A DNA stretch of 64,000 bases from Candidatus Bathyarchaeota archaeon. Lineage in GTDB: Archaea > Thermoproteota > Bathyarchaeia > Bathyarchaeales > Bathycorpusculaceae. Location: NCBI GenBank assembly GCA_963782525.1, contig CAWAKC010000007.1:256001-320000 (forward strand), given 5' to 3'. Both the position numbers and the translations under genes were made by a program. Numbering within the stretch: the stretch's first letter is position 1; each line of letters opens with the position of its first letter. Shown one piece after another: positions 55,179 through 58,185 of the stretch. Below the pieces are notes generated by a model. That model searched no databases, had not been told where the DNA came from, and worked only from the letters and a program-made list of their open reading frames with translations.

Positions 55179-55343
55179 CGAATTTCCTCGCCGAATTAAG
55201 CATTCAATGCAGGCTATGGGATATAAAGATTTACAGAAGAGGACATACACCAACCGAAACACTCATCGCCACTGATAAGTTATCGCCAAACGACAATTTA
55301 CCACTAAAACCTTCTTAGTCAACCATAATCTTTCCAGACCCAT

Positions 55344-55402
55344 CCGACATTTTTATATATAACATAAGCCAAAGAAAGCGACCGAGGAAAAATAAATGTC
55401 GG
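55344..55402 (+). promoter_or_regulatory. fae-hps promoter: TATA-like TTTATATA flanked by 9-bp inverted repeat CCGACATTT / AAATGTCGG
   Basis: Arms at 55344-55352 and 55394-55402. The second arm spans the ATG. Confidence 0.45.
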
Positions 55403-56835
55403 GAGCAGACATCAAAAAGCCAGAAACACGTGAAATATTAATAAAAATGCTTACAGAAGCCGCCAAAAAAGAAGTTGGCACAAAAGGTAAGCCGACAAAA
55501 CCGACAGTCGTCGGAACAGCAAAAGAAATGGACATCCACAGAGACACACTCTACTCATGGCTAAAAGAATTTAATGTCGATTTCAAAGAAATCGTTGACC
55601 GGATGCAGACAACAGCTGACATTGCAGAGGAGGATTCAAACCCAACTTACCTTATCGGAGAATCATTACTTGGAGAAGGAAACGAAGTTGCACACATCGA
55701 TCTCATGATAGGCGATAAAAACGGACCCATCGGACAAGCATTCGCAAACGGCATGACACAACTATCCGCCGGCCACACACCAGTGCTAGCCGTCATCAGA
55801 CCTAACCTGCCGCCAAAACCACACACTCTAATCGTGCCAAAAGTCACCATCAAAAACATGGAGGACACAGGTAAAATCTTCGGTCCAGCACAAGCAGCAG
55901 TTGCAAAAGCCATTGCTGACTCAGCCGAAGAAGGGGTTATTCCAGCCAGCAAGCTAGACAGTTGGGTTATCATCTGCAGTGTCTTCATTCATCCAAAAGC
56001 AACCGATTACCGCAAGATATACCAGTACAACTATGGAGCAACCAAAATGGCGCTACAACGAGCGTTAAAGAGCTATCCAACACTAGAAAAAATTATCTAC
56101 GAAAAAGATCGCTCAAAGCACCCAATTATGGGCTTCAAAGTTCCACGCCTATGGAGACCACCATACCTACAAATTGCACTTGATGCACCCTCACTTGAAG
56201 GCGCAAAGAAAGTTATACAAGCACTGCCAGGAAGCGACAGAATTATCCTTGAAGTCGGAACCCCATTCATTAAACGCTACGGCACAAGGGGAATCAATGA
56301 ACTACGTCAAATAGCCAAAGACAAATTCATTATAGCAGACCTAAAGACCCTTGACGTTGGCAAAGTTGAAGTGGACATCGCCTACGAAGACACCGCAGAC
56401 GCAGTAGTCGCAGCAGGCTTAGCTCCTCCAGAAACCCTCGACGCAACCGTTCACGAAGCCAGACGCCTTGGAATCTACGCAGTCATCGACATGCTAAACG
56501 TTGAAGATGTGTTGGGTAAACTGAAATCTCTCAAAGACCTTCCAGACATCGTCATATTACATAGAGGCATCGACCAAGAAAGCGGCAGAACCTGCGGATT
56601 GGAACGCATAAAACTTATACGCCAAGCATTCCCCAACAAGAAATACCTAATCGCAGTCGCAGGCGGCATAGTACCAGAAACAGCTAAAGAAGCATTAGAT
56701 CTAGGCGCAGACATACTCATCGTCGGCAGATACGTTACACAATCCAAAGACATCGAAAGGTCAGTTCGAGATTTCCTCGAGTTAACACCAAGCATGCGCG
56801 AAGACGTCGACTTATATAGAGTCCACACAGAATAA
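55396..56835 (+). CDS. fae-hps: bifunctional formaldehyde-activating enzyme / 3-hexulose-6-phosphate synthase with extra N-terminal HTH
   Basis: Fae: IGE.L.G.GNEVAHIDL.IG, GHTP, FGPAQAAVA. Hps: LQIALD, EVGTP, ADLKTLD, LHRGID, AVAGG, VGR. About 80-aa N-terminal extension. Confidence 0.95.
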   Translation: MSGADIKKPETREILIKMLTEAAKKEVGTKGKPTKPTVVGTAKEMDIHRDTLYSWLKEFNVDFKEIVDRMQTTADIAEEDSNPTYLIGESLLGEGNEVAHIDLMIGDKNGPIGQAFANGMTQLSAGHTPVLAVIRPNLPPKPHTLIVPKVTIKNMEDTGKIFGPAQAAVAKAIADSAEEGVIPASKLDSWVIICSVFIHPKATDYRKIYQYNYGATKMALQRALKSYPTLEKIIYEKDRSKHPIMGFKVPRLWRPPYLQIALDAPSLEGAKKVIQALPGSDRIILEVGTPFIKRYGTRGINELRQIAKDKFIIADLKTLDVGKVEVDIAYEDTADAVVAAGLAPPETLDATVHEARRLGIYAVIDMLNVEDVLGKLKSLKDLPDIVILHRGIDQESGRTCGLERIKLIRQAFPNKKYLIAVAGGIVPETAKEALDLGADILIVGRYVTQSKDIERSVRDFLELTPSMREDVDLYRVHTE

Positions 56836-56847
56836 ACCATAAAACCC

Positions 56848-56880
56848 CGAGCAAAGCTCGCCTAATTTTCTTTTTTATTT
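56848..56880 (+). terminator. hairpin CGAGC-AAA-GCTCG plus T-tract
   Basis: Downstream of the fae-hps stop, convergent with the MFS gene. Confidence 0.4.
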
Positions 56881-58185
56881 AATGTTTTTTGGAAATAGCT
56901 TTAGGGCTATGAAGGCAACCAAGAAGACTAAAGCGGCAATTGCGAACATTATGACAAAACTGAGGCTACTAGCAAGAAAAGGTCCAAGAAAAGCACCGAC
57001 TGCTGAGCCTAAGCCGACAAGTCCATCGAAAAATCCGGCTTTACCCTCAGGTATTACTTCCATAGAAAGAGAAAGCATCAGAATGTAATACATTGCGTAG
57101 GCGAAACCGATGAAAACGAGCAGGAGACCAGTCAAAATTTTAGGAGCCAGAGCAAATTCAACTATTCCAACCAACGAAAATATTAGAAGACTTCGCAGAA
57201 GCACGAAACGGGGCATTTGTTTTCTTATATTCATTGATCTTGCGCGTCCGCGTATTAAGAAGTACCCTGTTGTTGCACCGACTGAATTAAGAATGTATGC
57301 TAGATATACGTACTGTTGTTGTCCGCCAAAGAGGTCTTTAAGATATACGGGTAGTGGCGTAAAAAATAGACTGGTCGCAAGAGAAAACAAAACTATTCCC
57401 AAAACCAACCCTAGAAAGCTTTCCTCTTTGAGCGAACCATTCCAACGCAGTCCATCCATAAGTCTAGTTGACCCCTCCAAACCCCGAGAAGCGGTATCAA
57501 GCTTCCTTTCAATACCTACCAAGCGCCTTTCAAAAATCATCAATGGGTCAGCAATAAATGCCACAGCCAAAATGAAGGCTACTGCACTTAAACCGGAACA
57601 CAGGTAGAAAGAGTATGTGGATAGAGTTGAAAAGCTAAGCGCAGATGCAAACAGTAGCAATCCGGCTACTAAGCCGATAATGAAACCAATTTCAGTAACT
57701 CCCTCGTATAATCCAAAAGAGCTCTCCCAGTCCTTGCGGCTGTAATGCTCGGTTACAAGCACATTTTTCGGTGATTCGTGTGCTACATGGAGCATTTGCA
57801 TGACAACATACAGAATGACAAAAACGATTAAATTTTGTGCGAACGGAAGTGCCATAAGAAAAAGAAGTATAGCTATTGAAGCGAAGGAAAGAAGAATGAA
57901 CGCTTTGTAGTGGCGAGTTTTATCACAGAGGTATCCCCAGAGAAATGAGGCTGGAATGGAGCAGAATATAGCTACGGAAGTCATGATGCCAAGAGCAAGC
58001 AGCGGGCCACCCAAGAAAACTATCACGTACAATGGTATAAAAACTGTTAGCAATCCGAAGGCCATATCGTGAAAGAAGAATCCTAGCCGCCACATAGCCA
58101 CAAACCAGTTCACTGTCGAATTAAAACTTTTACCTGAAAAATCAGAACATACGTAAAAGTAGTGTTGGAGAGAAAAAATTTTCAT
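56875..58185 (-). CDS. MFS transporter
   Basis: About 12 TM segments and motif A-like WGYLCDKTR. The start is probably nearer 58095. Confidence 0.88.
   Translation of the reverse strand: MKIFSLQHYFYVCSDFSGKSFNSTVNWFVAMWRLGFFFHDMAFGLLTVFIPLYVIVFLGGPLLALGIMTSVAIFCSIPASFLWGYLCDKTRHYKAFILLSFASIAILLFLMALPFAQNLIVFVILYVVMQMLHVAHESPKNVLVTEHYSRKDWESSFGLYEGVTEIGFIIGLVAGLLLFASALSFSTLSTYSFYLCSGLSAVAFILAVAFIADPLMIFERRLVGIERKLDTASRGLEGSTRLMDGLRWNGSLKEESFLGLVLGIVLFSLATSLFFTPLPVYLKDLFGGQQQYVYLAYILNSVGATTGYFLIRGRARSMNIRKQMPRFVLLRSLLIFSLVGIVEFALAPKILTGLLLVFIGFAYAMYYILMLSLSMEVIPEGKAGFFDGLVGLGSAVGAFLGPFLASSLSFVIMFAIAALVFLVAFIALKLFPKNIK

Follow-up and report, generated by a model that had tools for sequence, protein, structure and literature searches.

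In enterobacteria, PutA joins an N-terminal ribbon-helix-helix (RHH) domain to the enzymes of proline catabolism and represses its own control region via several operators, with redox state and membrane binding as the switch. Bacteria respond to formaldehyde through separate regulators such as HxlR, which controls the operon for 3-hexulose-6-phosphate synthase (HPS) and 6-phospho-3-hexuloisomerase (PHI), and FrmR; both sense via cysteine chemistry. Canonical Fae-Hps, for example the Methanosarcina barkeri enzyme, fuses formaldehyde-activating enzyme (Fae) to HPS and links formaldehyde handling, tetrahydromethanopterin (H4MPT) and pentose synthesis. Here we describe a Fae-Hps gene of a Candidatus Bathyarchaeota archaeon. 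It lies at 55396–56835 (+) of the window, which is the whole stretch of DNA analysed: 64,000 nucleotides of contig CAWAKC010000007.1, assembly GCA_963782525.1, positions 256,001 to 320,000. The product has the same two-domain order as the canonical enzyme, which starts at the Fae domain, but adds an N-terminal head that is predicted to be a helix-turn-helix (HTH) DNA-binding domain. To our knowledge, Bathyarchaeia have no cultured representative and their transcription control is essentially unknown; for these archaea, sequence alone here yields a putative regulator, a probable operator and a target.

The nearest design known to us is that of RbkR, an archaeal riboflavin kinase with an N-terminal winged HTH. 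In PMC5397151, DNA binding of RbkR is shown, autoregulation is proposed from candidate operators in its own transcription unit, and the authors class RbkR among the trigger enzymes; most genomes with RbkR have no other orthologue of the enzyme. PutA is also mentioned in PMC5397151. RbkR, as described there, and the Fae-Hps of the window are alike in that an archaeal metabolic enzyme carries an N-terminal DNA-binding domain, predicted in our case, on one chain. They differ in the domain itself, a MarR-type winged HTH in RbkR versus, in Fae-Hps, a small helical HTH that lacks a wing and does not match MarR, and in enzyme and pathway. They also differ in what supports them: for RbkR the paper reports experimental DNA binding, a structure on DNA and a multi-gene regulon, whereas the Fae-Hps head is known from sequence and only its own promoter was found as a candidate target. 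MarR and riboflavin kinase families are absent from the Pfam and NCBIfam matches of Fae-Hps, so the likeness to RbkR is one of design only. PutA likewise has an N-terminal DNA-binding domain on a bifunctional enzyme, and a sister form of Fae-Hps in Bathyarchaeia also has an RHH head, but PutA is bacterial, its enzymes are unrelated and it has no homology to the head of the window protein. FrmR (PMC5016687) is a formaldehyde-responsive bacterial regulator of formaldehyde-handling genes; in contrast to the head of Fae-Hps, FrmR and HxlR are separate proteins of other folds, without sequence similarity to the window protein in Pfam and NCBIfam scans. We found no description of a DNA-binding domain on Fae-Hps in the full-text literature, subscription journals and supplementary files lying outside the scope of that search. 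The bathyarchaeal enzyme would be a second archaeal case after RbkR.

Enzyme and predicted DNA-binding domain lie on one polypeptide, as in the trigger enzymes PutA, BirA, NadR and RbkR. We propose that Fae-Hps with the HTH head is a self-regulating trigger enzyme acting on its own gene, and put the probability of this reading at about 0.6. The earlier note on this DNA had suggested that the enzyme may double as a DNA-binding regulator that responds to formaldehyde, H4MPT or sugar phosphates. Support for a regulatory DNA-binding role of the head comes from comparison: a promoter array specific to the type of DNA-binding domain, constraint on individual nucleotides, an RHH head with a different repeat, and decay of the motif after HTH loss.

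The NCBIfam model of the bifunctional enzyme (NF009833, PRK13307; 392 positions) aligns with residues 85–478 at model positions 2–390 (572.6 bits, cut-off 274). The first 84 residues thus lie outside the known enzyme, in line with the extra region of about 80 residues that the earlier note had seen ahead of the Fae domain. We then searched with residues 1–88 alone and found that 718 of 833 candidate proteins match at E ≤ 0.01. The best 120 of these 718 matches are 80–100% identical over residues 1–88; nearly all are 478–487 aa long (most 479 aa) and nearly all carry both Fae and OMPdecase domains. Among 401 genomes of the class, sampled one per species, the extension (query start at residue 7 or before) is present in at least 125, with 126 matches among those listed. 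The extension-bearing genomes among the matches listed come from the window's own family, three more families of its order and one genome of another family. The species collection holds 358 stretches that encode the N-terminal domain, and 80 related loci are assigned to Candidatus Bathyarchaeota or Bathyarchaeia, including Bathy-6 and Ca. Bathycorpusculum. At the scale of the phylum, Fae-Hps of other classes aligns from residue 77–85 onward only. The fusion, whose distribution across archaea the earlier note had named as a check, is found in a large branch of Bathyarchaeia and was not seen in the Fae-Hps of other classes of the phylum. Three contigs with an HTH-Fae-Hps gene (L115, L129 and L150) sit in bins labelled Methanocella, Limnocylindrales and Acidoferrum and are probably mis-binned Bathyarchaeia contigs.

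Comparison of the loci indicates that the extension is real, translated and conserved. The protein start M-S-(G/D/E)...KKPE is common to 29 loci, and the sequence 5' of that Met is unrelated between them. Met70, the one further in-frame Met ahead of the Fae domain, is not conserved and reads I, V, L or K elsewhere. Pairwise divergence at the three codon positions is 0.207/0.086/0.484 for the HTH core (residues 34–66) and 0.203/0.093/0.567 for the Hps domain; the two patterns match, and the HTH core is under purifying selection as strong as that on the enzyme domains. Across families the N-terminal domain is conserved down to 46–56% identity. It is followed by an acidic, variable linker (residues 71–84; 55606–55647, +), which the earlier note had also described. 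Residues 67–84 diverge almost freely (0.542/0.498/0.652) and form the least constrained, fastest-evolving segment of the gene, and residues 72–82 have a predicted local distance difference test score (pLDDT) below 50 in the full-length AlphaFold2 model. Start, promoter, Shine-Dalgarno-like element and coding-type divergence all fit translation from Met1. Metatranscriptome contigs of relatives (82–99% alike; four runs from four studies) bridge the HTH-to-Fae junction, for example 55406–55715 and 55414–55877. They lend weak support, because they show neither ends nor strand, come from relatives and may reflect DNA carry-over. Positions 55276–55359 are uncovered by contigs of the four runs; this gap says nothing about where transcription starts, since intergenic DNA is too diverged for the contigs of relatives to map there.

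We modeled the N-terminal domain (residues 1–70; 55396–55605, +) with AlphaFold2 from a 38-row alignment. The model is a compact four-helix domain (helices 12–29, 38–44, 49–58 and 63–71) with a mean pLDDT of 85.7 and a predicted template modelling (TM) score of 0.71, and the full-length model repeats the same N-terminal helices, followed by the low-scoring linker. Helices 38–44 and 49–58 form a predicted HTH, the latter being the candidate recognition helix, and pack on helices 12–29 and 63–71. The HTH string pointed out in the earlier note is present at residues 37–59, and the fold check proposed there returned four helices with an HTH. The 38 aligned N-domains share eleven invariant residues (T37, A42, H48, R49, D50, T51, W55, E58, F59, V61 and F63) within the signature PT..GTA....IHRDTLY.W..EF.V.F.

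On an 85-aa piece, the best Pfam matches stay below threshold: HTH_29 at 20.5 bits (cut-off 28.1), GP3_package at 19.9 (29.4), HTH_28 at 19.4 (25) and HTH_23 at 17.1 (24.6). Over all tests the best scores were 20.5–20.7 bits for HTH_29 and 19.4–19.7 bits for HTH_28. Among the 38 aligned N-domains, E ≤ 0.01 is reached by 37 for HTH_28, 33 for GP3_package, 30 each for HTH_29 and HTH_23, and 9 for the Fis-type HTH_8. The Pfam HTH alignments cover helix 2, the turn and helix 3 (residues 37–61). The top Foldseek lists are mostly HTH proteins (TetR, Fis, NtrC, sigma region 4, homeodomain and gp3) at TM scores of 0.4–0.5. A sequence search of the PDB with the N-domain alone gave nothing below E 0.57, and a profile search found only Fae itself and the phage protein 2ao9 (E 0.067), an entry that also appears in the Foldseek list at rank 44. 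The label "Fis/homeodomain-like" used in the earlier note is only loosely right, although the domain is of the HTH type; the nearest families are HTH_28, HTH_29 and HTH_23 together with the gp3 terminase small subunit. From these transposase- and terminase-small-subunit-type families the head differs by its own signature and its long first helix. Taken together, the models and profiles predict that the head folds as an HTH-type domain.

The head has no paralogue in its own genome. A library of representatives at 50% identity gave 34 matches, most of them fragments of extended Fae-Hps, down to 44% identity. Two matches set the same head in another context: one is a free-standing protein of 108 aa, and in the other, of 153 aa and possibly truncated, the head is joined to another C-terminal part. 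The same library also returned unrelated proteins of 314–589 aa with five to seven tandem copies of a similar HTH repeat; the proteins in these unusual contexts are P0134, P0145, P0137, P0147, P0148 and P0151.

The control region of the gene contains several copies of the word CCGACA. In the window, a proximal CCGACA (55344–55349, +) abuts the TATA box TTTATATA (55352–55359, +) at the position of the TFB recognition element (BRE), and a distal copy with the core CGACA lies about 105 nt 5' of the ATG (55291–55295, +). An inverted copy, TGTCGG (55397–55402, +), lies over the start codon as ATG-TCG-G. Inside the coding region, a tandem CCGACA pair (55492–55497 and 55501–55506, +) encodes two Pro-Thr pairs just before HTH helix 2, and an inverted core TGTCG (55575–55579, +) encodes part of Asn60-Val61-Asp62. 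The TATA box ends ∼37 nt upstream of the ATG, so the leader should be short; the transcription start is placed by general archaeal promoter geometry. A Shine-Dalgarno-like GAGG (55384–55387, +) stands 9–12 nt upstream of the ATG, and most loci shown have a GAGG-, GGAG- or AGGT-like string at about −10 (judged by eye, uncounted).

We mapped the cores CGACA and TGTCG from −150 to +300 in 32 HTH-type loci and then in 79 further distinct loci. Two sites are close to universal: the forward core at about −51 is present in 31/32 and 78/79 loci, and the reverse core at +1, over ATG-TCG-G, in 31/32 and 79/79. A forward core between +97 and +118 is found in most of the 32 loci and in all 79 further ones, and a reverse core at about +170 to +191 in 20/32 and 76/79. 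A further forward core at about +202 to +224 occurs in about half of the 32 loci and in 75/79. The distal forward core is present in 16/32 loci, at −103 to −106 or at −93/−94, and in 34 of the 79 further loci between −110 and −90. All 29 loci aligned at the promoter read CCG(A/G)CA, 1–3 nt, TTA(T/A)ATA, with the end of the TATA box ∼33–37 nt before the start codon, and TTAWATA at the conserved distance recurs in 78 of the 79 further loci. The second intragenic CCGACA of the window is followed 3 nt on by GTCGG, which makes a tight palindrome CCGAC-N4-GTCGG (55501–55514) in the window's own genome and in some of its genus; a terminator scan flagged this palindrome on the minus strand.

Are the intragenic copies a by-product of the protein sequence? 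We ranked codon fixation over 308 conserved-residue columns of the whole 479-aa gene in 28 loci. The four strongest synonymous-codon fixations, S2, P36, V61 and T37, all build motif copies. Ser2 is TCG in 28/28 loci (expected 0.16; rank 1), and again in 79/79 further loci; Pro36 is CCG in 24/28 (expected 0.25; rank 2), Val61 is GTC in 22/28 (expected 0.22; rank 3) and Thr37 is ACA in 28/28 (expected 0.46; rank 4). The invariant Pro36-Thr37 pair is coded CCG-ACA in 24/28 loci versus 0/12 for the other Pro-Thr pairs of the enzyme part, at a gene-wide use of 138/681 Pro codons for CCG and 215/524 Thr codons for ACA. Because synonymous codons are fixed at the motif positions, the intragenic copies are no by-product of the protein sequence, and because all columns share one tree, the ranking is no effect of relatedness. 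Operator-like copies kept inside a coding sequence by synonymous codons would clearly illustrate how a protein code and a DNA code can overlap.

At the position of the HTH head, different domains are present in other families of the class. Two of two sister N-termini tested, of 45–55 residues, match RHH_1 at 18.5 and 18.7 bits (E ∼0.002), both below its gathering threshold of 20.5. Fourteen genomes from five families carry this RHH-type head, as do 21 protein clusters of 447–452 aa, and 21 positions of its strand-helix-helix segment are invariant in 15 sequences. In the promoters of the RHH type, GTGACAC-N6-GTCACA stands ∼14 nt ahead of the TATA box, and many have another GTGACAC further upstream; in one promoter the repeat is a perfect 18-bp palindrome. 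A third head type, a diverged HTH that scores 22.3 bits for the Sigma70_ECF region (cut-off 21.1), was seen in two genomes belonging to another family; GCGGCA occurs at least twice in 2/2 of these loci and flanks the TATA box. In several Bathyarchaeia families, Fae-Hps starts within ∼10 residues of the Fae domain, as in other classes of the phylum. In family f80, two loci (L057 and L058; genomes G640 and G670) have a 64-residue open frame before Fae with no recognisable domain and no clear start, and three other genomes of this family are without an extension.

We cross-tabulated heads and motifs over the 420 nt upstream of the Fae domain, a region that includes the coding part of the extension, so that counts of two or more sites are inflated by intragenic copies; L057 and L058, L059, which is cut by the contig end, and the set of 80 related loci were left out. 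CCGACA or its complement is present in 31/32 HTH-type loci (shuffled mean 3.8), 1/13 RHH-type loci and 1/19 head-less loci. GTGACAC or its complement is present in 0/32, 11/13 (shuffled mean 0.6) and 0/19 loci, respectively. HTH versus RHH at the same position in sister lineages offers a natural experiment on regulator-operator co-evolution.

Two head-less loci within the window's genus are informative. A tree of the Fae domain (162 columns, with many unresolved forks) places all HTH-type sequences and these two in one group (support 92/80), with the head-less two nested deep in it (100/98), and puts the RHH type in four unresolved groups. In one head-less locus (L024, genome G234), an in-frame deletion has removed the HTH but left the first 12 residues, and the three motif copies are all changed: CCGGCA, TGTCAG (Ser2 = TCA) and an altered distal copy. 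The other (L051, the second copy of genome G354) is an extra, more diverged gene beside a normal HTH-bearing copy; it has no motif copy at all and Ser2 is TCT. As reconstructed from the tree and these sequences, there are two secondary losses of the HTH, each paired with loss of the CCGACA word.

These comparisons lead us to the following picture. The protein consists of three parts, a predicted HTH head, a flexible acidic linker and a complete Fae-Hps. The head would most likely bind CCGACA at the BRE position, inverted over the start codon, ∼54 nt further upstream, and in the first 220 nt of the coding region, so that the enzyme would regulate how its own gene is transcribed. Repression is more probable than activation: the pre-initiation complex is expected to assemble at the TATA box and the presumed start, which are flanked by the two universal sites, and a bound head could exclude TFB or RNA polymerase. 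We infer the binding of the head to the motif, the sign of the regulation and any coupling to the ligand state of the enzyme. The in-phase sites at −105, −52, +2 and +106 (and +211 in relatives) are spaced by ∼53 or 105 nt, in steps of roughly five helical turns, a phasing that would let one oligomer place several of its heads along the same side of the double helix; Fae is a pentamer. Carried further, the enzyme could be a self-sensing regulator: a multi-subunit particle with several tethered heads would grip the phased sites and wrap its own promoter and early coding region, and occupancy by formaldehyde, H4MPT or sugar phosphate would set the synthesis of the only pentose route. We advance this extended model tentatively and regard it as doubtful. 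If autoregulation by the head is right, at least two unrelated folds for DNA binding, HTH and RHH, would have been captured at this position, each along with a distinct operator, and this would amount to repeated selection for direct enzyme-to-gene feedback.

Several observations weigh against autoregulation by the head, and they are best read together with its competitors. All Pfam HTH scores lie under the gathering threshold of their family, and Foldseek gave no significant match (best E 0.48 in the PDB and 0.26 in BFVD, at a threshold of E ≤ 0.001). The proximal site occupies the expected BRE position, so a gene-specific TFB site is possible, and the window's own copy is without the +211 site seen in many relatives. 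Across the genome, non-coding DNA shows no enrichment of CCGACA (165 of 981 sites versus ∼27% non-coding sequence), and no conserved second target was found in the own genome and the relatives compared. Head type and promoter motif both follow phylogeny, so the counts of the cross-table are not independent events; the independent events come to only about three domain types and two losses. The same facts about weak family scores, the BRE position and shared phylogeny would suit a head that is HTH-like but no reader of CCGACA, serving instead oligomer assembly, partner docking or non-specific nucleoid tethering while a separate factor or TFB binds the words. However, three DNA-binding-type heads (HTH, RHH and the sigma-region-4-like HTH) at the same position in sister lineages, each with its own repeated word, are hard to square with a non-DNA role. 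Nor does such a role account for two independent HTH losses that coincide with loss of the word, and the genome has no head paralogue that could act as a separate factor of the same family. We therefore consider this explanation unlikely, although it deserves to be taken seriously.

The motif copies might instead act in RNA, with the head unrelated or RNA-binding: UGUCGG at +2 is complementary to CCGACA at +97 and +106, so the start codon could pair ∼100 nt downstream for translation control, and a single-sequence fold of −12 to +130 is more stable than shuffles (minimum free energy −25.9 kcal/mol, z −3.25). In that fold, however, the start codon pairs locally and not with the distal CCGACA, RNAalifold finds 0 conserved pairs in 28 sequences over the same interval, and two of the copies, at −51 and −105, precede the TATA box and hence fall outside the transcript, which makes regulation at the RNA level very improbable. 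That the extension is an annotation artefact, with translation starting downstream, would fit the in-frame ATG at residue 70 in this genome. We give it almost no weight: Met70 is not conserved, the HTH core evolves as coding sequence and keeps its identity across families, the domain folds confidently in the model, and promoter and Shine-Dalgarno-like element stand just upstream of Met1 in all loci examined. Autoregulation through the CCGACA array remains the reading that we prefer.

We searched the window's own genome (2.87 Mb, 95.8% complete) for further targets. The composite CCG[AG]CA-N1-4-TTAWATA has two matches, and the one outside the Fae-Hps promoter has no open reading frame (ORF) behind it. 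CCGACA plus TTWA in non-coding DNA gave six matches, of which the two promoter-like ones were discarded, being without a real ORF (17 aa, or none). Direct CCGACA pairs 40–60 nt apart number eight in coding and zero in non-coding DNA, and four CCGACA/TGTCGG hexamers within 300 nt occur at only three loci of the genome. A second, intergenic cluster lies at C8:29407–29478 (locus L163, 808–879): the inverted repeat CCGACA-N14-TGTCGG stands there twice, 45 nt apart, ahead of a TATA-like, AT-rich sequence and an ORF of unknown function (345 aa), and has no Rfam match. As a conserved target it was rejected, the downstream ORF being present in only 2/30 relatives; the same head may use it as an additional target in this strain alone. 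The third four-hexamer cluster (C7:243742–243928) is located ∼12 kb upstream of the window, within an open frame of 817 aa.

The Fae-Hps gene itself stands alone. A small opposite-strand ORF lies upstream, and downstream of the stop codon (56833–56835, +) is a convergent gene (56875–58185, minus strand). The ORF starts with ATG and encodes 479 aa. The Fae domain spans residues 85–245 (55648–56130, +); Pfam PF08714 covers residues 87–245 at E 2.6e-69 and TIGR03126 scores 251.9 bits. The HPS domain, of the OMP-decarboxylase fold, spans residues 256–459 (56161–56772, +; PF00215 at E 3.4e-32, TIGR03128 at E 2.7e-38). A profile search finds a single Fae match in the whole genome. In 32 aligned sequences, H100, D102, D315, K317 and D320 are invariant, and the segments A-H-I-D-L of Fae and A-D-L-K-T-L-D of HPS are invariant or nearly so, which bears out the view of the earlier note that the motifs of both enzyme domains are intact; their H-x-D and D-x-K-x-x-D cores we take to be the catalytic motifs. 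From family membership it follows that the enzyme part should act as Fae-Hps does elsewhere, interconverting hexulose-6-phosphate with ribulose-5-phosphate and formaldehyde, and handing the formaldehyde to H4MPT.

No protein of the genome scores above the cut-off of the PHI equivalogue TIGR03127 (best 65 bits versus 160). The best match is a 396-aa frame with a SIS domain, and a diverged isomerase, or one of another kind, may perform the partner step of the ribulose monophosphate route. Many relatives (L052–L056; genomes G390, G013, G252, G216 and G360) have a second Fae fusion, ∼495 aa long, that is absent from the window's genome. It joins an N-terminal aldolase of the DHDPS/DapA family (PF00701, E 3.4e-79) to Fae (PF08714, E 2.8e-62).

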